Both the position numbers and the translations under genes were made by a program. The notes beneath the pieces are model-generated. The model searched no databases, was not told the DNA's origin, and saw nothing but the letters and a program-made list of their open reading frames with translations. From a virus: a DNA stretch of 39,443 nucleotides. Positions 1,065-27,487 of the stretch are shown here, one piece after another (positions within the stretch are counted from its first letter, which is position 1; the number at the start of each line of letters is the position of its first letter). Location of the stretch: UHGV virus genome UHGV-0120658. One strand, given 5' to 3'.

Positions 1065-2096
1065 TCAAAAACTTGCTATTGATGTTGGTAGTGTTGCCAG
1101 CGGATTAAACCGTAATGCAGTTTCCAGGTGATCCGGTGCCAGATGTGCGTAACGCATAGTCATTTTTATATCGTGATGCCCGAGAATTTTTTGTAAGGCC
1201 AGGATATTTCCACCCGACATCATGAAGTGCGCCGCAAACGTATGGCGCAGAACGTGTGTCAGTTGACCGCGAGGGAGCACGATAGACGTTTTTTCCATCA
1301 CGGATAAAAATTGAAAATAGCAGTCTGTAAAGAAATTGAACCCATCAAGCGCCATGATCTCTTCGTAAAGCTCTTTACTGATAGGGATGCTTCTGTTTTT
1401 CTTCCCCTTCGTTCTTACAAAGGTAATTCGGTATTTGGTCACCTGTGAGCGGGTAAGATTTACGGCTTCACGCCAACGTGCGCCTGTGCTTAAGCATATC
1501 TTAACTACCAGTGCCAGAATTGGGTCCTGACGTTTGCAATCAGCCAGCAATTCAACAATCTGCTCATGGGTAAGCCATGCCATCTCTTTTTCTGCGATGG
1601 TGAATTTTCGCATGTTCTCCAGTGGGTTTGGATACGACCATTCGCCCAGGCGGGATAGTTCGCTAAAAACACTACTTAGATAGCTTTGCTCCAGGTTAAT
1701 GGTGACCGGGCTGGCTCCTTTCTTCCATTTCTCGCTGAAGTAGATCTCACCTGTCAGGCGTTTATCTCGATAGTGGGCAAACATTTTAGAGGTGAGATTG
1801 GTTGCAAGAGGATTGCCTAGAGCGTCAACCATCAGCAGCAATTTGTCATAGACATGCTGCCCAGCAGTCAGAGATTTACCATGTAATTTGAACCATAGCT
1901 CAACCACGTCTTTCAGGGTTCGACGATCCACTGATTCGCCCAGCCAGGGCTTTGATTCGGTTTCTTCCATCGTGTGACGCTCAAAAGCCAGTGCTTCGCC
2001 TTTGGTGGCGAATTGTTTACGCACACGACGCCCACTACGTCCGGCGGGGTAACATTCGCAAAGCCATTTTCCTGTGGTGAGTTTTCGTACTGCCAT
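1065..2096 (-). CDS. int: Tyrosine integrase (P2 Int-like)
   Basis: N-terminus MAVRKLTTGKW aligns with remembered P2 Int MAIKKLDDG; C-terminal catalytic signature LRHTFA...GHHDIKMTMRYAHL (R, H-x-x-R, Y). Start chosen at the ATG at 2094-2096, with GAGGG RBS 8 nt upstream on the minus strand. Confidence 0.9.
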   Translation of the reverse strand: MAVRKLTTGKWLCECYPAGRSGRRVRKQFATKGEALAFERHTMEETESKPWLGESVDRRTLKDVVELWFKLHGKSLTAGQHVYDKLLLMVDALGNPLATNLTSKMFAHYRDKRLTGEIYFSEKWKKGASPVTINLEQSYLSSVFSELSRLGEWSYPNPLENMRKFTIAEKEMAWLTHEQIVELLADCKRQDPILALVVKICLSTGARWREAVNLTRSQVTKYRITFVRTKGKKNRSIPISKELYEEIMALDGFNFFTDCYFQFLSVMEKTSIVLPRGQLTHVLRHTFAAHFMMSGGNILALQKILGHHDIKMTMRYAHLAPDHLETALRFNPLATLPTSIASF

Positions 2097-2122
2097 AAAA
2101 AAAGCCCTCATATCAGAGGGCT
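2097..2122 (-). terminator. Hairpin plus U-run just upstream of the int start (candidate terminator for the repressor-orf314 transcript)
   Basis: Stem agccctc (2103-2109) pairs with gagggct (2116-2122), 6-nt loop; on the minus strand it is followed by TTTTTT (2097-2102). Confidence 0.4.
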
Positions 2123-2124
2123 AA

Positions 2125-2153
2125 ATTTAACTGTATATAAAAACAGTATTCAA
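2125..2153 (-). promoter_or_regulatory. Candidate sigma70 promoter for int with a LexA box filling the spacer
   Basis: Minus strand reads TTGAAT (2153-2148), 17-nt spacer, TTAAAT (2130-2125). The spacer 2131-2146 is CTGTatataaaaACAG on the plus strand (CTGT-N8-ACAG). Confidence 0.45.
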
Positions 2154-2187: not shown

Positions 2188-3132
2188 TTAATCTGTTTCT
2201 TTATCACTTCCAGTTACTTTAACTTTGTCTTTGATTGTATTCACAAATGACGCAAAGCTCGGTGGTTGCTCTGTCTGACCTGAAAATGCAGAGTCACCTG
2301 AAATATTCCAATCCTTAAAGACTTCTATTGCATCCTCTTTAGTTGCTGTAGAACCGTATATCTGCAAAAAAACTTGACCAAACATCAAAGCATGTCGACG
2401 ATCTTTTCGCCTGATCGATTCATGTGTGTACTTTTTTGAGTTACTAAGGCAGATATATGATAGCCATGAAAGAATGGCGATTCCAACTAATCCTCGCGTG
2501 AAGATATATATTAACTGAAGGTTAGTGAGATTTTTTAAATCTAAGTTCATGTATAATGTAAAAAAAGCAGATACTACCGCAAGGAAGCCAAAAAATACCC
2601 CAGCAATAGACCAGATAATAGACATCAATATAAAATGTTTGTCATCACTAGCAAGATCTGATTTAACATCGTTAACATAGGTAGGGATTTTTTCATCGAT
2701 TCTTTGTTGCTGTACTTGGCTACGGAGTTCCTTATTTTCACTAATCAATGAATTAACTTGTTTTACATTTTTTTCGATTATTGCGTTTTTTCTATTAATA
2801 TCCTGAGTATAATGCTCTAACTGTAGAGTTAATATGCTGTTTCGTTCTTCTAATTGTATTATATGTTCTACATAATTATTAGGTTCAAGTGATTTTACAT
2901 TTTTTCTTTTATTAGTTTCATTTTCATTTATATTGGGTTCTTCATCCATCGCTGGCCTAGTTATGTATTTTTCAATTAGTGCTAGGTTATTATGAGCTTC
3001 AGAAAACTCTCCTGCTTCTATTAAGTTTTTTATATGAGAGTAGAAGTGTTTTGCTATATTTTCAGACTGTGAATCAAGAAAGTCTAATAGGTGTTTTTTT
3101 ATTTCGCTATCTTTATTGGTTGGTTCAGTCAT
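2188..3132 (-). CDS. Hypothetical 314-aa coiled-coil membrane protein (two predicted TM helices); cargo in the lysogenic operon
   Basis: AT-rich ORF between repressor and int on the same strand. Heptad-rich N-terminal half, two hydrophobic helices (ILMSIIWSIAGVFFGFLAVVSAFFTLYM and LQLIYIFTRGLVGIAILSWLSYICL, about 2446-2631), soluble C-terminus. Start codon 12 nt after the repressor stop. Confidence 0.6.
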   Translation of the reverse strand: MTEPTNKDSEIKKHLLDFLDSQSENIAKHFYSHIKNLIEAGEFSEAHNNLALIEKYITRPAMDEEPNINENETNKRKNVKSLEPNNYVEHIIQLEERNSILTLQLEHYTQDINRKNAIIEKNVKQVNSLISENKELRSQVQQQRIDEKIPTYVNDVKSDLASDDKHFILMSIIWSIAGVFFGFLAVVSAFFTLYMNLDLKNLTNLQLIYIFTRGLVGIAILSWLSYICLSNSKKYTHESIRRKDRRHALMFGQVFLQIYGSTATKEDAIEVFKDWNISGDSAFSGQTEQPPSFASFVNTIKDKVKVTGSDKETD

Positions 3133-3143
3133 GATGTTTCTCT

Positions 3144-4079
3144 TTATATATTTTTAGTAAAAACTCTTTTACATTTTGCCAAAACGATAATGTCAGTAAG
3201 TAAGCATTCAAAACTTGTGTTAGTGCCTACAACTTTAACCATACCAACGGGTATGCGAGTCAAATCTTTGATGCTTATTTTCCCTTCAATATTCACAAGC
3301 CACTTGCCATCAGTAACTTCATTAAATTTTGATTCTACAATATATATTTCCTCATCAATGAATACTGCTAAAGGTTGCAGAAAGGTTCCTTCTAACAACT
3401 TAGAGTCAAAAGTCAAGACGGTTTCTTGAGCAAGAGATCCATCAATTATTTTATGATATGGGATAGTGATAGTATTGATTCGAGGCTTTTCAAACATTGC
3501 CCCGTTACCAGTGGTTAGCCATGTTAATGAAGCACCAGTTTCCAGTGAGCATTGAATAATCCAGTCAGCAGGAAAGGTATCTCTCATGTAACGATTGGCT
3601 AATGTACTTTTTGATACACCAATATGATCAGCTAAAGCTTGTCTTGTCTTAAATCCATAAGCCAAAACGATTCGCTCTATTGCTGCTTTTCCGCCTTGGT
3701 TAATAGTAAAAAAGTTCTCATTTTGGATGTCTTGTTCTCTATTGAGATGTTGATGCTTGCTGTCACAATTGTTGTGACTTTTTTCTGCATTATTTGTAAT
3801 GCTTCCCTTCTCGGTATCAGTGCCAAATGCCAACCACTCGACCGGCACTCCAGTCTCCATGCTACAGATAACAACCCAATCAGCAGGGAAAGTGTCACGG
3901 GCATACCTGTTCGCCATTGTACTTTGCGATATACCTAGGTGATTACAGAATGCTTGTCGGGAAGAAAAACCATAGGCTTTCAGTATCCGATCTATAACCG
4001 ATTGCCCTCCGCGATTCTGCATGATTAAGGATTTCTTTTTTTCGTCCACATGGCGAAATGTGATTTCGTGTGTTGACAT
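3144..4079 (-). CDS. Prophage immunity repressor with two tandem CI-type HTH domains and a C-terminal beta-rich domain
   Basis: Residues about 24-86 and 129-191 are about 59% identical repeats (AYGF..RQA...G.S.ST.ANRY.RDTFPADW...CS.ETG...WL..G), resembling the phage CI N-terminal HTH. Divergent from the Apl-like gene across the 4080-4167 intergenic region. Confidence 0.7.
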   Translation of the reverse strand: MSTHEITFRHVDEKKKSLIMQNRGGQSVIDRILKAYGFSSRQAFCNHLGISQSTMANRYARDTFPADWVVICSMETGVPVEWLAFGTDTEKGSITNNAEKSHNNCDSKHQHLNREQDIQNENFFTINQGGKAAIERIVLAYGFKTRQALADHIGVSKSTLANRYMRDTFPADWIIQCSLETGASLTWLTTGNGAMFEKPRINTITIPYHKIIDGSLAQETVLTFDSKLLEGTFLQPLAVFIDEEIYIVESKFNEVTDGKWLVNIEGKISIKDLTRIPVGMVKVVGTNTSFECLLTDIIVLAKCKRVFTKNI

Positions 4080-9487: not shown

Positions 9488-9556
9488 TTACGCGGGTTAA
9501 CAATTCGTGCTCTTAATAATACCAGGCATATCAGGCTGATGAATGTAAAAAAACGT

Positions 9557-9597
9557 TTTACATCAGTAAGATTATTATATACTGTAAATATAAACAG
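9557..9597 (+). promoter_or_regulatory. Candidate SOS promoter with a LexA box overlapping the -10
   Basis: TTTACA (9557-9562), 17-nt spacer, TACTGT (9580-9585); CTGTaaatataaACAG at 9582-9597 matches the LexA consensus CTGT-N8-ACAG. Confidence 0.5.
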
Positions 9598-9640
9598 TGG
9601 TTATACATACAGTATTGCGTGTGGTGTCATAGGAGGAAAG

Positions 9641-9829
9641 ATGCAGGACTATTTTTTGGAGTCTTTGAAGCTCCAGCGCATTGATTTTTTTCTTAAGCTT
9701 GTAGCGGCTAGTGAGTGTAGTGATGAAGAGAAGGGGCTGGCTCTGCAGTGGGTTTCTGAATTGACTGATGAACTCATGGCAAAAATCAGAACCCACGAAT
9801 ACAACCGCTCAATGGATGTCATCAGCTGA
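9641..9829 (+). CDS. Small 62-aa protein in the LexA-controlled module (candidate antirepressor partner)
   Basis: ATG at 9641 with AGGAGG RBS, immediately downstream of the LexA box. Function inferred from position. Confidence 0.45.
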   Translation: MQDYFLESLKLQRIDFFLKLVAASECSDEEKGLALQWVSELTDELMAKIRTHEYNRSMDVIS

Positions 9830-9839
9830 GGTGACTTTT

Positions 9840-10073
9840 ATGCGCATTGAAATAATGATCGATAAAGAGCAGAAGATTAGCCAGTCTACCCTGGACGCCC
9901 TTGAATCCGAGCTTTACCGCAATCTGCGCCCCCTGTATCCCAAAACGGTAATTCGCATTCGCAAAGGTAGCTCTAACGGTGTGGAACTAACCGGACTGCA
10001 ACTGGACGAAGAAAGAAAACAAGTGATGAAAATTATGCAGAAGGTGTGGGAAGACGACAGCTGGCTGCATTAA
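9840..10073 (+). CDS. DinI-family protein (Tum/DinI-like SOS module)
   Basis: 77 aa MRIEIMIDKEQKISQSTLDALESELYRNLRPLYP...KIMQKVWEDDSWLH resembles E. coli DinI (MRIEVTIAK...ETWESADDWF); GAGGTG RBS. Confidence 0.65.
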   Translation: MRIEIMIDKEQKISQSTLDALESELYRNLRPLYPKTVIRIRKGSSNGVELTGLQLDEERKQVMKIMQKVWEDDSWLH

Positions 10074-10208
10074 GAAACGTTGCTGGCGTCTGAACTTGCT
10101 TCTGGCGTCAGCAAGGTTGAACAACGAGCCCTTGCGAGGCGTTAGCTCTGTAGTGCATGTCTATGCCGCATGAGATCGCATGATCGTTTGAGGATCGTTT
10201 TTGCTAAG

Positions 10209-10232
10209 GCCCGCCAGAACTGGCGGGCTTTT
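10209..10232 (+). terminator. Rho-independent terminator after the SOS module
   Basis: gcccgcca (10209-10216), loop gaac, tggcgggc (10221-10228), then tttt. Confidence 0.6.
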
Positions 10233-10383
10233 GCGTAGCTCATGCAGGTGCATGAAAACCACTACATAAAGCGGGCAGGCGTGGCGGGGATACGAGCGCG
10301 CGCTTAGCCATGAATCTGTGGACTTGATGGTGAAGCTAAGGTAATTTGTATCAAAAAAAAGCAGTACAATAGGGATATATAGA

Positions 10384-11463
10384 GTGGCGTTATCAGATGC
10401 GTTAATTACAGTAAATCAAGCCGAACGGGGCGGTGAAAACGCGTTGAGAGGCTTTTCATATCAAGCCTCTTGGGGGATAAATTATTTACTTGAGAAACAA
10501 AAAGAAAAGGAGAAATATTTATTTCTATTTGAATATCATGACGATATTCTTGTATTGAATTCATCTGTTTCTCCGACTAGTGCTGAGTTTATCCAAGTTA
10601 AAACAAAAAAAGATGGTAAATGGACACTCGCAGCAATAGTGAACGCAACAAAAGCTAAACCTAAATCATTTGTTGCAAAACTATATGACCATTTCTATCA
10701 ATTCGTTGGTCACGAAATTTATATGGTTCTGTTATCGAATGCTGGATTCGATTTCTTAAATGATAATAACGAAAAAGGTAGTGATCTTAATAATGAGCAT
10801 AAGGAAATTATAATTAGTAAGGTTCAAGAGCAGCTAAATACTAAAAAAGAAGTTCCTCTTGATAAAATAAAATTTAAAACATCTGATCTTAGTTTGTTAG
10901 ATCCTAACTCACATTTATACGGGAAAGTTGCAGTTTTTTTGAATTCTTACTTTGGGGATGATCATGGTATTAATTCAACAGCATTCACTAAATTATTAAT
11001 CAATAAGTGTAATGAGAAGGTTAGTGTTGCTTCTAGTGATATCAAAACTTTTGAAGATTTAGTACTAAAGAAAGGTATATCTTCAGAATTTGTAACTGAT
11101 TTATTATCTGGACTCATTGCAAGCATAAAAATAACGCCAAAATGGGAACAGGTTTGTATGTTGCTTGGTACTTTCTCAGATCCTTATGAGGGGATTAAAT
11201 TACAATCAGTTTTTACACGCATATCAATAAAAGTGCTCAATGTCAATTCAATATACTATCTTTATTTTCTGGAATTTCAATCGGCTCTAAAGAGTATAGA
11301 GCATTATCGTGAGATACCTGTTCGAGACCTCTTCTTTACACTCGAAAAAACAATTGCAGCGGGGGACGGGGATTTCTCTTTATTAAATCAAGAAGAGAAA
11401 TTTATGATTGCTATATATGCAATTATAAAGTTGACTTTTGAGGATGTTTCTTATGAAGAATAA
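10384..11463 (+). CDS. Candidate defence effector: PD-(D/E)xK nuclease of the Cap4/DUF4297 type (LmuA-like)
   Basis: AT-rich gene; N-terminal GFSYQ, then FEYHDDILVL...AEFIQVKTKK, i.e. a D...QxK restriction-endonuclease-like catalytic core (about 10540-10602). GTG start with AGGGA RBS; 11-nt overlap with the downstream ATPase gene. Confidence 0.55.
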   Translation: MALSDALITVNQAERGGENALRGFSYQASWGINYLLEKQKEKEKYLFLFEYHDDILVLNSSVSPTSAEFIQVKTKKDGKWTLAAIVNATKAKPKSFVAKLYDHFYQFVGHEIYMVLLSNAGFDFLNDNNEKGSDLNNEHKEIIISKVQEQLNTKKEVPLDKIKFKTSDLSLLDPNSHLYGKVAVFLNSYFGDDHGINSTAFTKLLINKCNEKVSVASSDIKTFEDLVLKKGISSEFVTDLLSGLIASIKITPKWEQVCMLLGTFSDPYEGIKLQSVFTRISIKVLNVNSIYYLYFLEFQSALKSIEHYREIPVRDLFFTLEKTIAAGDGDFSLLNQEEKFMIAIYAIIKLTFEDVSYEE

Positions 11464-13111
11464 CGTTAAATTTAAAAATATAAAAATACTCTCATTAAGA
11501 GACAGAAAAGCTTTTTCTTATGAGTTTTCAGAAGGGGTTAACTTCATATATGGTACAAATGATGTTGGTAAATCAAGCCTGATTAAAAGTCTTTATTACA
11601 CATTAGGTGGAGATTTAAGGCTTGATGATGCTTGGAAATCAGATGATATAGTTACACTGGTGGAAATTAATAACGGGGAAAATGATTTTATTTTTTTGCG
11701 TTATAAAAAGATTATTGGTGTCTTTGATTTGAAGAATGATGATCTAGTCGTGTATAACACGATTTCGTCATTAGCATCTCGTGTTTCAAATATATTTGGT
11801 TTTAAACTGGAATTACATAATAAATATACGGGTGCTACGACTCAGGCAAACCCTGCTTGTTTGTTTGCCCCATTCTTTATTGATCAGGATGAAGGATGGA
11901 AAGCGGTGATAAATTCTTTCGAAAACATGAGTATGTACTCAGAATGGCAAAAAAACATTCTTTACTATCACTCTGGAATTAAGCCAAAGGAATATTATAC
12001 AGTTCAAGGGAAAATCAAAGAAATTAAAGTTAAAATTTCAGAGTTAGATGGTTTTGTTAAGGTTCTAAAAAGAAGCAAAAGTAAGATTGATGAATCTTTT
12101 GGCGTGGTTTTATTTGATGTTGATTTGGATTTTTATAAATCAAAGTTGGAACGTATATTAAATGAATATTCTAATTTAAATTTAGTTCAGACAGAATATA
12201 GATTGAATCTTTTGAGGTTATATTCTAGGAAGAATTTCCTTGAGAGTGAACTCAAAGAGATAACTGCGATTATTGATAATGAATTTGAGATTTCGAATTT
12301 TCGAGATGATAATGTTGCTTATTCAGTAAATGAATATAATTATATAAACCATAGAGATGAAATGCTCAAAAACATTGCTGTTCTTGCAGATGAGAAAAGC
12401 AAGATTGAGGAAAATATTCCTAAATTGAATCAAAAGCTAGAAGAGTCAAGGGCTGCTTCAGAGGCGTTGCAGGCGCTGATTTTAGAAACTCAATCGGAAA
12501 TAACGCTTCATGATGTTATTAAATCTGCCGCATACCATGAAATTGAATCTACTTTTATTTCACAGTTAGATGAGTTATTCGTTGAGATTGGTCGAAAAGA
12601 AGGCGAGTTGACAGAATTACAAGAAGAATTAGAAGTATACAATGATAAGAAAAGAACTGTTAAAATAAATGACTGTTTCAAAGAGTATTTCGCTAAAGCT
12701 CTTAAAGAGCTTGGTGTCGAAAATACAAAGGTAGGTGGCCTTAGTAGTTATAATAATATTACTAAGGGTAAGACTGGTAGTCGAGGTCCTCGAGGTATAT
12801 TTGCATTTCACTACGCGCTGCTTAGTGTTATGAAAAGCAACTCTTCAGTTGAGAATATGCCTATAGTAATAGACTCTCCAAAGCAACAAGATTTGGATCC
12901 AGAGCATACGCATAAGCTTATAAAACTATGCTTGGATGGGTTTTCCCTTACAAATCAGATTATTATTGGAACTGTTGGTTATGAGAGTTTCATGGATGGT
13001 TTTAATAGCATCAAACTTGAAAATAAATATCATCTTTTAAATGATGAACATTATGATAATGTTTATTCTCAATTAATGCCATTGTTTGAACGGGTGATAC
13101 TTTCAAGATGA
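11453..13111 (+). CDS. Candidate defence ATPase: SMC/Rad50-like coiled-coil ABC ATPase (LmuB-like)
   Basis: Walker A GTNDVGKSS near the N-terminus (about 11552-11578), long central heptad-rich region, C-terminal Walker B-like PIVIDSP. ATG at 11453 overlaps the upstream stop (11461-11463). Confidence 0.55.
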   Translation: MKNNVKFKNIKILSLRDRKAFSYEFSEGVNFIYGTNDVGKSSLIKSLYYTLGGDLRLDDAWKSDDIVTLVEINNGENDFIFLRYKKIIGVFDLKNDDLVVYNTISSLASRVSNIFGFKLELHNKYTGATTQANPACLFAPFFIDQDEGWKAVINSFENMSMYSEWQKNILYYHSGIKPKEYYTVQGKIKEIKVKISELDGFVKVLKRSKSKIDESFGVVLFDVDLDFYKSKLERILNEYSNLNLVQTEYRLNLLRLYSRKNFLESELKEITAIIDNEFEISNFRDDNVAYSVNEYNYINHRDEMLKNIAVLADEKSKIEENIPKLNQKLEESRAASEALQALILETQSEITLHDVIKSAAYHEIESTFISQLDELFVEIGRKEGELTELQEELEVYNDKKRTVKINDCFKEYFAKALKELGVENTKVGGLSSYNNITKGKTGSRGPRGIFAFHYALLSVMKSNSSVENMPIVIDSPKQQDLDPEHTHKLIKLCLDGFSLTNQIIIGTVGYESFMDGFNSIKLENKYHLLNDEHYDNVYSQLMPLFERVILSR

Positions 13112-18748: not shown

Positions 18749-19213
18749 ATGAAGTTTGTTGCGCCAGAACAGGCACCGGAACAGGCGGAAATCATCAGGA
18801 ATACGCCGTTCTGGCCTGATGTGGACTTGTCGGAGTTTCGCAGTGTCATGCGCACTGACGGTACGGTGACGCAGCCGCGTTTAAAGCAGGTTGCGCTGTC
18901 GGCAATTTCGGAGGTCAACGCAGAGCTGTATGAGTTTCGCAGACGTCAGCAGATGCTGGGGTATGCGTCGCTGGCTGAGGTTCCGGCGGAACAGCTGGAC
19001 GGCAAAAGTGAGCGCATTCAGCATTATTTCAACGCGGTTTACTGCTGGGCACGCGCCATGCTCAACGAACGTTACCAGGACTATGACGCCACGGCGTCCG
19101 GTGTGAAGCGGGGCGAGGAACTGGCGGAAGCAAGCGGTGATTTGTGGCGTGACGCCCGCAGGGCCATCAGCCGGGTGCAGGATGCGCCGCACTGCACAGT
19201 GGAGCTTATCTGA
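18749..19213 (+). CDS. L: Head completion protein (P2 gpL-like)
   Basis: ATG at 18749 with CAGGAG RBS; NTPFWPDVDL...AELYEFRRRQ resembles P2 L. Confidence 0.75.
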   Translation: MKFVAPEQAPEQAEIIRNTPFWPDVDLSEFRSVMRTDGTVTQPRLKQVALSAISEVNAELYEFRRRQQMLGYASLAEVPAEQLDGKSERIQHYFNAVYCWARAMLNERYQDYDATASGVKRGEELAEASGDLWRDARRAISRVQDAPHCTVELI

Positions 19214-19416
19214 TGAAAGTGCGTGCGCATCAGTATGACACGGTGGACGCGCTTTGCTGGCGTCATTACGGGCGCACGCAGGGTGTCACGGAGCAGGTAC
19301 TGAAGGCAAATCCGGGGCTTGCCGAATACGGCCCCTTTTTACCTCACGGGCTGCAGGTGGAGCTGCCGGACATTCCGACCACCACCACCGTGCAGACCGT
19401 CCAGCTATGGGACTGA
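19213..19416 (+). CDS. X: Tail protein X (P2 gpX-like)
   Basis: 67 aa MKVRAHQYDTVDALCWRHYGRTQGV...LPHGLQVELPDI, very similar to P2 X. Confidence 0.85.
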   Translation: MKVRAHQYDTVDALCWRHYGRTQGVTEQVLKANPGLAEYGPFLPHGLQVELPDIPTTTTVQTVQLWD

Positions 19417-19419
19417 ATT

Positions 19420-19635
19420 ATGACGCTTGAGCGAATCAGTGCCTTTATCACGTATTGCATCGCCGTCGTGCTGGCCTGGCTGGGCGATTTGTCCATCAAG
19501 GATGCCTCAACGCTGGGCGGCCTGATGATTGGTGTGCTGATGCTGGCTATCAACTGGTACTACAAACATAAAGCCTACCAGCTTCTGCGCGACGGGCAGA
19601 TCTCGCGGGAGGACTATGAATCCATCAATCGTTAA
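19420..19635 (+). CDS. Holin (small two-TM, pinholin-like)
   Basis: 71 aa with two hydrophobic helices and a charged C-terminus, immediately upstream of the endolysin. Confidence 0.65.
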   Translation: MTLERISAFITYCIAVVLAWLGDLSIKDASTLGGLMIGVLMLAINWYYKHKAYQLLRDGQISREDYESINR

Positions 19636-20131
19636 ACGCTGCCTTGTCGGGGCCGTGCTGGCTATTGCAGCTACGTTGCCGGGTTTTCAGCAGCTTCACA
19701 CCTCCGTGGAGGGGCTGAAACTAATTGCCGATTACGAAGGCTGCCGTCTGCAGCCGTATCAGTGCAGTGCAGGTGTCTGGACCGACGGCATTGGTAATAC
19801 ATCGGGCGTCATTCCCGGCAAAACAATCACGGAACGACAGGCAGCAGAAGGGCTGATTTCCAACGTGCTGCGTGTGGAGCGGGCGCTGGAAAGGTGTGTG
19901 AAGCAACAGCCGCCGCAGAAGGTATATGACGCTACGGTGTCGTTTGCCTTCAACGTGGGAACGGGCAATGCCTGCAGTTCCACACTGGTGAAATTACTCA
20001 ATCAGCGGCGCTGGGCAGAAGCGTGCCGACAGTTGCCGCGCTGGGTTTATGTGAAAGGTGTGTTTAATCAGGGGCTGGATAACCGCCGTGCGCGGGAGAT
20101 GGCCTGGTGCCTTAAAGGAGCTGGACTATGA
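19616..20131 (+). CDS. Endolysin, T4-lysozyme-type muramidase with an N-terminal SAR-like segment
   Basis: N-terminal Gly/Ala-rich weakly hydrophobic stretch KRCLVGAVLAIAATLPGF followed by the lysozyme motif EGLKLIADYEGCRLQPYQCSAGVWTDGIGNT. Confidence 0.8.
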   Translation: MNPSIVKRCLVGAVLAIAATLPGFQQLHTSVEGLKLIADYEGCRLQPYQCSAGVWTDGIGNTSGVIPGKTITERQAAEGLISNVLRVERALERCVKQQPPQKVYDATVSFAFNVGTGNACSSTLVKLLNQRRWAEACRQLPRWVYVKGVFNQGLDNRRAREMAWCLKGAGL

Positions 20132-20556
20132 CGCGTGCGCTGGCGGTAGTGGCGGCGCTGGCACTCGTTGCGCTGGGCTGGCAGTCGTGGCGGCTTAACA
20201 GCGCCAGCCACACCATCGAAACGCAGCGCGCGGCGCTGAAAAGTAAAGCGCACGAACTAACGAAGAAAAATAGCCAGCTGATCAGTCTGTCCATTCTGGC
20301 TGAAACCAATAACCGGGAGCAGGCGCGGCTCTATGCCGAAGCAGAACAGACCAGCGCGCTGCTGAGACAACGACAACACCGGATCGAGGAACTGAAACGT
20401 GAGAACGAGGATTTACGCCGCTGGGCTGATACTCCTTTGCCTGCTGACATTATCCGGCTGCGAAAACGTCCGGTATTCACCGGAGGTGCAGCTTACCGTC
20501 AGTGGTTGTCCGCGAGTGACGCCGTGTCGGCTGGATCAGGCAACGCCGCGCACTAA
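20128..20556 (+). CDS. i-spanin (Rz/LysB-like)
   Basis: N-terminal TM segment ALAVVAALALVALGW, then a coiled-coil periplasmic domain. Confidence 0.7.
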   Translation: MTRALAVVAALALVALGWQSWRLNSASHTIETQRAALKSKAHELTKKNSQLISLSILAETNNREQARLYAEAEQTSALLRQRQHRIEELKRENEDLRRWADTPLPADIIRLRKRPVFTGGAAYRQWLSASDAVSAGSGNAAH

Positions 20557-20689
20557 CGGTGATCTGAACGCGTTGCTGGATGAAACGGAGGCCGCCTGGG
20601 CGGTCTGTGCAGACAAAGTGGACATGATTATTGCGTGTCAGGAGCGAAACAGTGAACAAACCACAATCCCTGCGCCACGCCCTCAATAA
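20399..20689 (+). CDS. o-spanin lipoprotein (Rz1/LysC-like), overlapping the i-spanin in the +1 frame
   Basis: Signal peptide with lipobox LTLSGC; GTG start with GAGGA RBS. Begins inside the i-spanin gene and runs past its end. Confidence 0.65.
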   Translation: MRTRIYAAGLILLCLLTLSGCENVRYSPEVQLTVSGCPRVTPCRLDQATPRTNGDLNALLDETEAAWAVCADKVDMIIACQERNSEQTTIPAPRPQ

Positions 20690-21083
20690 AGCAGTGCCTT
20701 ATGTCCGCAATAACCCGGACAAACTGCATCTGTTTGTGGATAACGGTTCGCTGGTTGCCACGGGGGCCAGCTCCATGTCATGGGAGTACCGCTATACCCT
20801 GAACGTGGTGATTGAGGATTTCAGCGGCGACCAGAATCTGCTGATGGCCCCGGTTTTGCTGTGGCTGCGGGATAATCAGCCTGATGCCATCAATAACCCG
20901 GCGTTACGGGAAAAGTTATTCACCTTTGAGGTGGATATTCTGCGCAATGATGTCTGTGATATCAGCCTTAACCTGCAACTGACGGAGCGTGTGCTGGTCA
21001 GCACTGATGGCAGTGTGTCGAGTGTTGAAGCTGTAGCGGAACCCGATGAACCTGAAGAAATGTGGACGGTGAAACGTGGCTGA
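20652..21083 (+). CDS. R: Tail completion protein (P2 gpR-like)
   Basis: GTG start with AGGAG RBS; VNKPQSLRHALNKAV...FVDNGS aligns with P2 R. Confidence 0.75.
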   Translation: MNKPQSLRHALNKAVPYVRNNPDKLHLFVDNGSLVATGASSMSWEYRYTLNVVIEDFSGDQNLLMAPVLLWLRDNQPDAINNPALREKLFTFEVDILRNDVCDISLNLQLTERVLVSTDGSVSSVEAVAEPDEPEEMWTVKRG

Positions 21084-25343: not shown

Positions 25344-26884
25344 GCACAAAATTTTATACCCTGCTGACGGATATTGGCGCGGCGAAACTTGCCAGCGCCG
25401 CCGCGCTCGGTGTGCCGCTAAAAATTACCCATATGGCGGTGGGCGATGGCGGCGGAGTATTGCCGACGCCGGACGCAAAGCAGACTGCACTGGTAAATGA
25501 GAAACGCCGGGCTGCGCTGAATATGCTCTATATCGACCCGCAGAACAGCAGCCAGATTATTGCTGAACAGGTGATCCCTGAAAACGAGGGCGGTTGGTGG
25601 ATACGTGAAGTGGGCCTGTTTGATGAGTCAGGGGCATTGATTGCCGTGGGGAACTGCCCGGAAAGCTATAAACCGCAACTGGCTGAAGGCAGCGGGCGCA
25701 CCCAGACCGTGCGCATGGTGCTGATTACCAGCAGCAAGGAAAATATCACCCTGAAAATCGATCCTGCTGTAGTGCTGGCAACCCGCAAGTATGTGGATGA
25801 CAAGGTACTGGAGCTGAAGGTGTATGTGGATGACCTGATGGCAAAACACCTTGCCGCACAGGACCCACATTCACAGTATGCACAGAAAGAAAGTCCGACG
25901 TTTACCGGGAAACCCAAAGCGCCAACGCCAGCAGCAGGGAATAACACCACGCAGATTGCGACCACCGCGTTTGTTCAGGCGGCACTGATGGCCCTTATTA
26001 ATGGTGCGCCAGCCACACTGGATACGCTGAAAGAAATTGCCGCTGCCATTAATAATGACCCGAAATTCAGTACCACCATTAACAATGCGCTGGCACTGAA
26101 AGCGCCGTTGTCGAGTCCGGCACTCACCGGAACGCCAACAGCCCCCACGGCGGCGCAGTCGGTCAACAATACACAGATTGCCACTACGGCTTTTGTGAAA
26201 TCGGCGATTGCGGCAATGGTGGGTTCTGCACCTGCGGCACTGGATACACTGAACGAACTGGCGGCGGCGCTGGGGAATGACCCGAACTTTGCCACGACAA
26301 TGCTTAATGCACTGGCAGGTAAACAACCGCTGGACAATACGCTGACTAATTTGAGTGGAAAGGATGTAGCTGGTCTTCTCACATACCTTGGTTTGGGAGA
26401 AGGCTCAGCGTTACCCGTTGGTGTGCCTGTTCCGTGGCCTTCAGCCACACCACCAACAGGCTGGCTGAAATGCAACGGTGCACCTTTTTCTGCCGAAGAG
26501 TACCCAAAACTGGCAAAGGCTTACCCAAAGTTAAAATTACCGGATTTGCGCGGTGAGTTTATTCGCGGGTGGGATGATGGGCGAGGTGTTGATTCCGCGA
26601 GACTGCTACTTTCAAGTCAGGCGGCATCTATCCTTGAACATAACCATGAAATGCATGGATGGACAGGGAACCCACTCATGGCTAGAGATGTTTATTCATC
26701 CGGTTCATCCGTATTTGCGGTGCAGTTGAGCATTGGCGATGGCGGGTTATTGTATTCGTGGAAGGATGGGAGTGGAACAACAAATGACAGTAAACGAATG
26801 GATAGAACAAATCATGTCAGTTCCGGCGCCGGTGATGGTAGCCCGCGAAACATTGCATTTAACTACATTGTGAGGGCTGCATAA
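25340..26884 (+). CDS. H: Tail fibre protein (P2 gpH-like); C-terminal part lies in the invertible segment
   Basis: Conserved N-terminus MSTKFYTLLTDIGAAKLA; the variable C-terminal part begins downstream of the inversion site at about 26388. Confidence 0.85.
   Translation: MSTKFYTLLTDIGAAKLASAAALGVPLKITHMAVGDGGGVLPTPDAKQTALVNEKRRAALNMLYIDPQNSSQIIAEQVIPENEGGWWIREVGLFDESGALIAVGNCPESYKPQLAEGSGRTQTVRMVLITSSKENITLKIDPAVVLATRKYVDDKVLELKVYVDDLMAKHLAAQDPHSQYAQKESPTFTGKPKAPTPAAGNNTTQIATTAFVQAALMALINGAPATLDTLKEIAAAINNDPKFSTTINNALALKAPLSSPALTGTPTAPTAAQSVNNTQIATTAFVKSAIAAMVGSAPAALDTLNELAAALGNDPNFATTMLNALAGKQPLDNTLTNLSGKDVAGLLTYLGLGEGSALPVGVPVPWPSATPPTGWLKCNGAPFSAEEYPKLAKAYPKLKLPDLRGEFIRGWDDGRGVDSARLLLSSQAASILEHNHEMHGWTGNPLMARDVYSSGSSVFAVQLSIGDGGLLYSWKDGSGTTNDSKRMDRTNHVSSGAGDGSPRNIAFNYIVRAA
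26376..26401. repeat. Left inversion site (hix/gix-like 26-bp site) inside H
   Basis: TTCTCACATACC-TT-GGTTTGGGAGAA; the half-sites are an imperfect inverted repeat and resemble the remembered Gin/Hin half-site pattern TTxTCxxAAACC. Confidence 0.6.
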
Positions 26885-27487
26885 ATGGAACAGGTTATTT
26901 TGGGAAAAGACGGTTACGCTTTAAATGATGGGGAAATCATCGTACATAACTATGATGGCGAAACGCGGGAATATATTTCCACATCAACTGAATATCTTGC
27001 GGTTGGCGTCGGTATCCCGGCATGTTCTTGTTTAGATGCACCAGTTACACATAAAGCTGGTTATACAATTTGCCGTTCTGTGGATTTAAAATCATGGGAA
27101 TATGTGTCAGACCATCGCGGTGAAATCGTCTATAACACCGAAACGGGAGACGCCAAAGAAATCACAGCTCCGGGTGATTACCCTGAAAATACAACCACTA
27201 TCGCCCCATTAACGCCATACGATAAATGGGATGGTGAGAAATGGGTGACCGATACTGAGGCACAGCATCGCGCCGCAGTAGACGCGACAGAAGCACAGCG
27301 TCAGTCACTGATTGATACTGCAATGGCTTCCATTAGTCTGATTCAACTGAAATTACAGGCCGGGCGGAAACTGACGCAGGCAGAAACAACCCGGCTTAAC
27401 GCTGTGCTGGATTACATTGACGCGGTGACGGCAACAGATACCAGCACCGCGCCGGATGTCATCTGGCCTGAACTGCCGGAGGAGTAG
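26885..27487 (+). CDS. G: Tail fibre assembly protein (P2 gpG-like)
   Basis: 200 aa after H; its C-terminus resembles that of the alternative Tfa on the other strand. Confidence 0.8.
   Translation: MEQVILGKDGYALNDGEIIVHNYDGETREYISTSTEYLAVGVGIPACSCLDAPVTHKAGYTICRSVDLKSWEYVSDHRGEIVYNTETGDAKEITAPGDYPENTTTIAPLTPYDKWDGEKWVTDTEAQHRAAVDATEAQRQSLIDTAMASISLIQLKLQAGRKLTQAETTRLNAVLDYIDAVTATDTSTAPDVIWPELPEE

Follow-up and report, generated by a model that had tools for sequence, protein, structure and literature searches.

A repressor-linked membrane protein gene of a 186-like Escherichia coli prophage as a candidate exclusion or abortive-infection gene

The 314-aa gene and its transcription context

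The DNA considered here is UHGV virus genome UHGV-0120658, analyzed over its whole length of 39,443 nucleotides (nt; hereafter the window), and the subject of this study is an open reading frame (ORF) of 314 amino acids (aa) that lies between the immunity repressor gene cI and the integrase gene int. The window, which E. coli 65COLEC (NZ_CP070914.1) matches at 100% identity, holds a complete 186/P2-like (Peduoviridae) prophage of ~34 kb inserted between rcdA and ybjL. Genes at its minus-strand left end follow the order cI (4079-3144), the 314-aa ORF (3132-2188) and int (2096-1065), and diverging from cI on the plus strand are an apl/cox-like gene, cII, fil, a TraR/DksA-family gene, dam and a replication gene. 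The prophage has a full set of morphogenesis genes and a separate lysis cassette made up of an HP1-family holin, lysozyme, LysB and LysC (window ~19100-20800). The ORF and the elements that border it are as follows.

2188-3132, minus strand: 314-aa predicted inner-membrane protein, WP_049028122.1, 'hypothetical protein', member of PHROG 2628 (ORF listing, RefSeq)
3133-3143, minus strand: 11-nt spacer between cI and the ORF (AGAGAAACATC), with a weak purine-rich Shine-Dalgarno (SD)-like motif and no room for a promoter (read from the sequence)
2097-2122, minus strand: intrinsic terminator hairpin AGCCCUC-UGAUAU-GAGGGCU followed by U7 (terminator scan, RNA fold)
3144-4079, minus strand: CI repressor with two Phage_CI_repr helix-turn-helix (HTH) domains and CI_C (Pfam; RefSeq 'phage repressor protein CI')
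1065-2096, minus strand: tyrosine integrase, bounding the cargo slot on its downstream side (Pfam Int_N and Phage_integrase; RefSeq)

The ORF opens with an ATG (3132-3130), ends in TAA and encodes 314 aa. The cI stop codon occupies 3144-3146, leaving 11 nt (AGAGAAACATC) on the same strand, so that the ATG begins at the twelfth base past the stop. An earlier note, made from the sequence alone, had described this spacing, the placement of the ORF between repressor and int with all three genes on one strand, and its AT-rich composition, and each of these descriptions agrees with what we find; the GC content is 32.5% for the ORF, compared with 38.5% for cI, 47% for int and 49% for the window. Because the 11-nt gap is too small for a promoter of its own, the ORF should share the cI message and hence be made in the lysogen. 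The terminator hairpin folds at -14.5 kcal/mol (z = -3.15) and ends 1 nt before the int AUG, and it presumably forms the 3′ end of a cI-X transcript, X being the 314-aa gene. In phages carrying other cargo the int-proximal hairpin is kept, with changes that preserve the stem, and since it is conserved in front of int irrespective of the cargo, the cI-X unit appears to be insulated from int. The spacing and the downstream terminator together argue for co-transcription with cI and for expression in the lysogen.

Directly upstream of the hairpin, between the 314-aa gene and int (region 2097-2153), a perfect LexA-box-like palindrome TACTGTTTTTATATACAGT (2130-2148, minus strand) sits inside a promoter-like TTGAAT-17 nt-TTAAAT element, and phages with other cargo retain this block of LexA box, promoter-like element and hairpin. 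For int, the single SD-like motif is the GAGGG in the 3′ arm of the hairpin. A transcript from the promoter-like element would start inside the 5′ arm, so that the hairpin could not form; int may thus be SOS-induced, and cI-X read-through may be terminated or have its int SD masked. A second LexA-box-like site, TACTGTAAATATAAACAGT at 9580-9598, lies just upstream of plus-strand ORFs 9640-9828 and 9839-10072, which are a 62-aa ORF and a DinI-like gene, and this operon is probably the SOS-controlled antirepressor (tum-like) operon of the 186-like phage. The two sites correspond to four pattern matches over both strands, with 0.34 expected by chance in the window. The region between cargo and int also varies in length: several E. 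coli genomes with a 97%-identical locus have an insertion sequence element there (ISKox3, IS903B or ISEc53), and several viral loci contain an additional 1-2.5 kb in the same interval.

Protein architecture, family and distant relatives

Two hydrophobic segments, at ~166-195 and 205-232 (19-residue Kyte-Doolittle means up to 2.35 and 1.69), mark the 314-aa protein as a likely membrane protein, and a K/R cluster (KKYTHESIRRKDRRH) follows immediately past the second transmembrane (TM) segment, TM2. An AlphaFold2 (AF2) model calculated from 62 homologues (mean predicted local distance difference test score, pLDDT, 80) was read together with heptad analysis, hydropathy and alignments, and the following parts are distinguished.

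2959-3132, minus strand: N-terminal helical bundle, residues 1-58 (AF2 helices 6-21, 28-39 and 43-58, pLDDT ~90)
2884-2958, minus strand: linker, residues 59-83, N/E/K-rich and of low confidence (pLDDT <50 at 62-72 and 77-82)
2638-2883, minus strand: coiled-coil stalk, residues 84-165 (AF2 helix 84-194, heptads, PDB profile matches)
2437-2637, minus strand: predicted TM hairpin, residues 166-232, with invariant R213-G214 (hydropathy, AF2, alignment)
2263-2436, minus strand: family-defining tail, predicted to be cytoplasmic, residues 233-290 (alignments; column conservation 0.85-0.92)

In the model the stalk and TM1 form one unbroken helix (84-194) that leads through a loop (195-203) into a second long helix (204-259), comprising TM2 and its cytoplasmic extension, and further helices lie at 265-283 and 293-308. 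The predicted membrane boundaries are ~166-195 for TM1, ~196-204 for the periplasmic loop and ~205-232 for TM2. In the best heptad register of residues 84-165, hydrophobic residues fill 54% of the a/d positions as against 24% elsewhere, and a PDB sequence-profile search returned coiled coils only. The hydrophobic helical hairpin and C-terminal tail that the earlier note had read from the sequence are borne out by the hydropathy and the AF2 model. Its ~165-aa coiled-coil N-terminal domain does not stand as a single domain but resolves into a bundle of ~58 aa, a linker and a stalk of 80 aa, so that the coiled coil accounts for part of it. The linker is probably disordered, and the bundle is proposed to act as a sensor or input domain. 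Both termini are likely to be cytoplasmic (in/in topology), given the positive-inside K/R cluster past TM2 and the cytoplasmic TIR or EAD11 domain at the N-terminus of relatives.

The protein matches PHROG 2628, a family of unknown function, over its full length (residues 1-314 on profile positions 1-314 of 314, E=8.7e-220). Scans of Pfam, NCBIfam and PADLOC gave no significant family and only sub-threshold DUF996, DUF2207_C and LeoC, so the statement that no family could be recognized holds for these three collections and fails for PHROG. A word-indexed search of a protein set clustered at 90% yielded 161 homologues, all of them 'hypothetical', from hosts that include Escherichia, Klebsiella, Enterobacter, Citrobacter, Pectobacterium, Dickeya and Serratia, and an exhaustive phmmer search yielded 424 clusters at 50% identity (E<=1e-3) with a matched stretch of ~105-300. 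A profile search with the trimmed C-terminal module in a set of 5.8 billion proteins gave 21 matches, and a genome-collection scan with a closer alignment gave 7 loci. The PHROG match and the size of the family identify the ORF as a genuine conserved gene and not a chance reading frame. The exact 314-aa protein occurs on 148 contigs, and the allele is present, always on the chromosome and with an intact frame at >=95% DNA identity (that is, at least 95%), in 115 of 5426 complete E. coli genomes; this patchy presence and the low GC content are signs of horizontal acquisition. Across E. coli and Klebsiella there are alleles of 314, 325 and 329 aa. No relative was encoded in 50,697 GenBank phage records searched by tblastn. 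Judged by these searches, the family is unseen in cultured and deposited phages, and its phage-side record consists of prophages and uncultivated viral genomes.

Conservation is concentrated in residues ~140-300, covering the end of the stalk (RIDEKIPxYVxxV), the TM hairpin and the tail. An R/K-G pair in the second half of the TM hairpin is invariant across the family, the tail carries the motif Y-x-H-E-S-[IL]-[KR]-x-x-D-R-x-H-A-x-x-F-G ... F-x-x-W-N, and residues E238, H247, A248, G252, F272 and W275 remain invariant down to 20% overall identity (alignments A1-A4). Among 61 Enterobacterales homologues the median identity to the 314-aa protein rises from 18% over residues 1-83 to 23% over 84-139 and 63% over 140-314. 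We count this pattern, a variable putative input (residues 1-139) joined to a constant putative output (140-314), in favor of a sensor-effector arrangement.

In distant family members the same C-terminal module is joined to other N-terminal domains. A large clade of ~320-aa proteins from Vibrio, Pseudoalteromonas, Shewanella, Idiomarina and Flavobacteriia has TIR_2 ahead of the module, with the S..S.....E motif and its catalytic glutamate conserved, and in other members EAD11 precedes it (Pfam, E=2.7e-24). A trypsin-like protease gene and a gene for a 963-aa AAA_16/TPR STAND-type NTPase immediately precede one EAD11-fused member (locus L019), and another (L021 and L022) lies two genes from an EAD11-DO-GTPase2 protein. 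According to Kaur, Burroughs, Iyer & Aravind (2020, PMC7159879), EADs serve as adaptors through which variable effectors are coupled to an NTPase core that stays the same, and under this scheme the module takes the effector position in EAD11-fused proteins. On an Idiomarina conjugative element (L025, 6001-9472) a TIR-fused relative is directly followed by ThsB_TIR, SLATT_1, ThsB_TIR and TIR genes and a HEPN gene, a cluster that may be a single multi-TIR system. Another TIR-fused member is found amid transposases, a group II intron reverse transcriptase and HEPN_AbiU2 (L023), and homologues occur beside a resolvase and a type I restriction-modification system (L017) and at a prophage end adjoining CDI genes (L015). 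Some relatives have an MgtE_N-like N-terminal domain instead.

The cI-int slot and the cI-cargo cassette

The position of the gene is as conserved as its C-terminal module. In all 43 IMG/VR loci with a relative (L032-L074), cI immediately precedes the gene on the same strand, and int is downstream in 41 of them, the other two contigs ending first. The same cI-X-int order is seen for a 50%-identical 329-aa allele in E. coli, in Enterobacteriaceae isolate RIT714, and in Dryocola, Brenneria and Yersinia rohdei. The occupant of this slot varies among sibling prophages at the rcdA site whose integrases are ~89-97% identical: in some it is a 63-aa ORF, and in vB_EcoM-813R9 and E. coli 4973 it is a 558-aa protein that matches PADLOC PD-Lambda-1 (E=3e-120) and is labeled 'SNIPE associated domain-containing protein' in RefSeq. 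In Klebsiella phage 4LV2017 the slot holds an unrelated 349-aa protein. Experiments have established SNIPE/PD-lambda-1 as a membrane-bound nuclease that cleaves phage DNA while it is being injected (PMC13190303). A cI-int defense hotspot has been reported in Vibrio K139-like P2 relatives (Rousset 2022, PMC9122126), a different host clade with different cargo in a study that did not cover the enterobacterial 186-like slot, and a 2026 survey placed 8% of P2 defense systems between int and the primase gene (PMC13586616). A variable slot that also accommodates SNIPE, taken with the hotspot literature, gives a high prior that its cargo is anti-phage. This integrase and rcdA site type is present in 1134 of the 5426 complete E. 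coli genomes, about one fifth.

Repressor and cargo diverge together. In many of the viral loci, identity to the window reaches 97-100% for apl, cII and int but falls to 44-66% for cI and 38-62% for the cargo protein, and such divergence on near-identical backbones indicates that the two genes move as one exchangeable unit. By this comparison the cI-cargo pair behaves as an exchangeable immunity cassette, an arrangement compatible both with linkage alone and with functional coupling. The CI of the window matches Phage_CI_repr in two stretches (E=3.8e-58) and Phage_CI_C (E=8.6e-27). It is 311 aa long (292 aa in RefSeq), its tandem HTH domains at ~24-86 and 132-196 are clearly alike, and in sibling prophages carrying other cargo CI has only 189-198 aa.

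Other parts of the prophage may also hold cargo. An 89-aa hypothetical ORF (WP_001032044.1; 737-1006, minus strand) lies between int and the rcdA-side attachment site (att) and is present in some siblings (EC361) and missing from others (ATCC 8739); the int-att interval is a minor P2 cargo site according to the 2026 survey (PMC13586616). The classical P2 defense hotspot between the replication gene GpA and the portal gene (~9500-12850) contains a 111-aa hypothetical gene (10265-10600, minus strand), a 339-aa ImmA/IrrE-family metallopeptidase gene (11132-12151, plus strand) and then a 212-aa hypothetical gene (12157-12795, plus strand), and the genes of the metallopeptidase region are possibly another uncharacterized cargo system. 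Further along, a recombinase-family gene (26790-27356, plus strand) adjoins oppositely oriented tail-fiber and tail-fiber-assembly genes, which suggests an invertible host-range segment.

Proposed function and its alternatives

We propose, in a judgement that is evenly balanced, that the 314-aa gene is moron cargo of the prophage immunity cassette and encodes a self-contained membrane effector of the abortive-infection type expressed in the lysogen. The defense role is partly supported, as a candidate, by position, slot content, domain fusions and gene neighborhoods. In the scheme that we infer, from expression and topology through to trigger and membrane damage, the gene would most likely be transcribed with cI from the lysogenic promoter, the transcript ending at the hairpin before int. 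The hypervariable N-terminal bundle and the stalk would keep the protein inactive and react to a phage-derived cue, and the coiled coil would relay or drive a change in oligomeric state. The TM hairpin and juxtamembrane tail, with the invariant E238, H247 and W275, would then breach or depolarize the inner membrane, so that the superinfecting phage is aborted and the lysogen population, hence the prophage, is protected. The earlier note had put the gene forward as a candidate for exclusion or abortive infection. That suggestion survives in part: the slot, the position behind cI in 43/43 loci and the module shared with TIR and EAD11 proteins speak for it, while no validated family is matched and the two modes of action are not separated by the evidence.

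A close functional parallel is found in phage lambda, where RexA and RexB are abortive-infection genes co-transcribed with cI, expressed in the lysogen and acting at the inner membrane. The 314-aa gene would resemble them in its placement in the repressor operon, in the inner membrane location, in a proposed combination of sensor and depolarizing effector and in being dispensable for the phage. Co-transcription of the RexAB kind is suggested by geometry, namely the 11-nt gap, the shared strand and the terminator after the gene. However, RexAB consists of two proteins, RexB having four TM segments, whereas the 314-aa protein is single, with a 2TM hairpin and an N-terminal domain of its own, and no RexA or RexB homology was found for it, PADLOC giving only the non-significant LeoC (E=0.026).

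SNIPE/PD-lambda-1 shares with it the cI-int slot at the rcdA site in siblings and is likewise a single-gene, membrane-anchored system (Vassallo 2022; PMC13190303), but it consists of DUF4041 and a nuclease domain and cleaves DNA during injection, whereas no enzymatic domain is recognized in the 314-aa protein, which the PD-Lambda-1 profile does not match and which has no SNIPE similarity.

A different kind of relation holds for the TIR-[2TM + tail] proteins, which are annotated merely as 'TIR domain-containing protein' and for which no characterization was found. Their C-terminal module is homologous, with the same invariant residues, and they are standalone genes in mobile-element or defense neighborhoods; what differs is the N-terminus, a TIR domain with the catalytic Glu motif in place of the bundle and long coiled coil. 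The EAD11-linked effectors (PMC7159879) likewise have the same module behind EAD11, beside STAND or DO-GTPase genes, but these combine an adaptor with an NTPase partner, and the 314-aa protein is without an EAD11 detectable by Pfam and its prophage without an NTPase partner.

SLATT, PycTM, the CBASS 2TM effectors and type II Thoeris TM-Macro resemble the protein in having a 2TM hairpin flanked by cytoplasmic helices and a predicted membrane-perturbing action, and they share its types of neighborhood, a SLATT_1 gene lying two genes from the TIR-fused relative on the Idiomarina element. Membership in SLATT was rejected at the sensitivity of these searches, there being no match to SLATT_1 through SLATT_5 for the 314-aa protein (E<=0.1) or for 60 relatives (E<=0.01); hhalign of alignment A3 against one SLATT_1 protein gave a probability of 0.4%, a weak test given the single sequence. 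One relative has a weak PycTM match (E=6.6e-4). Unlike in SLATT and the other 2TM effectors, the tail carries the conserved HE...DRxHA...WN motif, which is specific to the 314-aa family, and a scan of the window found no SMODS, SLOG or TIR signal generator at the locus, TIR occurring in cis only in distant relatives.

By analogy, then, the protein would be functionally most like RexAB, the CBASS, Pycsar and Thoeris 2TM effectors and SLATT, while membership tests fail for all of them. It belongs to PHROG 2628 by its profile match and, on the evidence of the alignments, to the newly delineated 2TM + tail module family, which appears unrelated to RexAB or to the CBASS, Pycsar and Thoeris 2TM effectors and is so far unnamed. 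A broader proposal, which we put forward only tentatively, is that '2TM + HE..DRxHA..WN tail' is a widespread unnamed membrane effector domain of immunity, driven by TIR, by EAD11 (with STAND or DO-GTPase) or by hypervariable coiled-coil inputs, and deployed in 186-like phages as a cI-linked immunity cassette.

Several observations weigh against an abortive-infection effector. Neither the 314-aa protein nor nine of its relatives match a validated defense family in PADLOC 2.0.0, the matches in those relatives being confined to their TIR parts and leaving the 2TM-tail module uncovered. A Foldseek search of the full model against the PDB found nothing at E<=1e-3, and fold searches yield generic helical hairpins alone. 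Pfam recognizes no EAD11 in the protein, hhalign of the N-terminal alignment against an EAD11 alignment reaches a probability of 31% over 26 columns, and the 39-kb window has no STAND, MoxR-vWA or DO-GTPase partner. The TIR domain could itself be the effector in the TIR fusions, with the module a mere anchor or sensor, which would weaken the step in which the module acts as a pore. The N-terminus might vary through relaxed constraint and not through diversifying selection, and a gene this AT-rich may be silenced by H-NS. The Chimaeribacter copies, the only solitary chromosomal genes of the family, stand amid metabolic genes. In the literature no paper was found that names WP_049028122, nor a listing in the DefensePredictor supplements; earlier testing or naming is possible.

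The main rival to an abortive mechanism is superinfection exclusion without cell death, in which the protein would block entry of the phage genome at the inner membrane, as do P22 SieA, HK97 gp15, T4 Imm and K139 Glo, glo being an exclusion gene of phage K139. The variable N-terminus or stalk would then match particular injection machineries or host transporters. A predicted inner-membrane protein that is presumably expressed in the lysogen suits such a role, as does the linkage of X to cI, which fits protection against related phages. Of the Pfam families, the exclusion family SieB (PF14163) is not among the matches of the 314-aa protein, and the predicted periplasmic loop has only ~9 residues, leaving nearly all of the mass in the cytoplasm. 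The same slot houses SNIPE, which is active at genome injection (PMC13190303), and a cI-int defense hotspot is known in the Vibrio K139-like P2 relatives (PMC9122126). The fusion of the module to TIR and EAD11 in NTPase-type conflict systems is nonetheless a better fit for a triggered effector, and we consider entry exclusion unlikely.

Unlikely as well is a membrane role outside defense (in induction, lysis timing, envelope stress or lysogenic conversion), with the module reused as an anchor or signaling stalk. It would accommodate the lack of any matched defense family, the metabolic surroundings of the Chimaeribacter copies and the MgtE_N-like domain of some relatives, which is a magnesium-transporter and not an immune domain, and the tight linkage to cI could indicate a regulatory role. 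Yet the slot is variable and many sibling phages are without the 314-aa gene, making it dispensable for the phage life cycle, and the fusions to TIR and EAD11 recur in defense-island or mobile-element neighborhoods. A structural or lytic function, the alternative that the earlier note had named, was rejected: the gene lies in the lysogeny module, and the prophage has its own complete holin-lysozyme-LysB-LysC cassette at ~19100-20800, which also counts against the non-defense reading.

A toxin-like addiction element, restrained by the prophage through, for example, CI-dependent regulation and penalizing loss of the prophage or its immunity cassette, would be in keeping with a 2TM hairpin that recalls a membrane toxin and with co-inheritance with cI. 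We regard it as quite improbable, since there is no adjacent antitoxin-like small gene, the presumed relation to cI is co-transcription rather than opposition, and homologues are solitary in chromosomes and outside prophages. Least probable by far is a decaying or silent passenger without current function; very low GC content and the 'hypothetical' label in every record might suggest one, but 115 E. coli genomes carry an intact frame at no less than 95% DNA identity, and the C-terminal module, with its invariant residues, is strongly conserved over hundreds of clusters.

If the abortive-infection proposal is true, the 314-aa gene would define a new single-gene defense family and a new membrane effector module, and the TIR, EAD11 and coiled-coil inputs found in its relatives would constitute natural domain swaps for studying how membrane effectors are triggered. 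The cI-int slot of enterobacterial 186-like prophages would be a defense hotspot holding at least SNIPE and the 314-aa family. If repressor and cargo indeed form a functional cassette, exchange of the repressor allele would carry the exclusion specificity along, perhaps adjusted against heteroimmune relatives, and the gene would be a one-protein equivalent of cI-rexAB with allele-specific targeting. The joint divergence of cI and its cargo would then point to a single heritable unit of immunity type and exclusion specificity, which bears on the competition between temperate phages within a host species.

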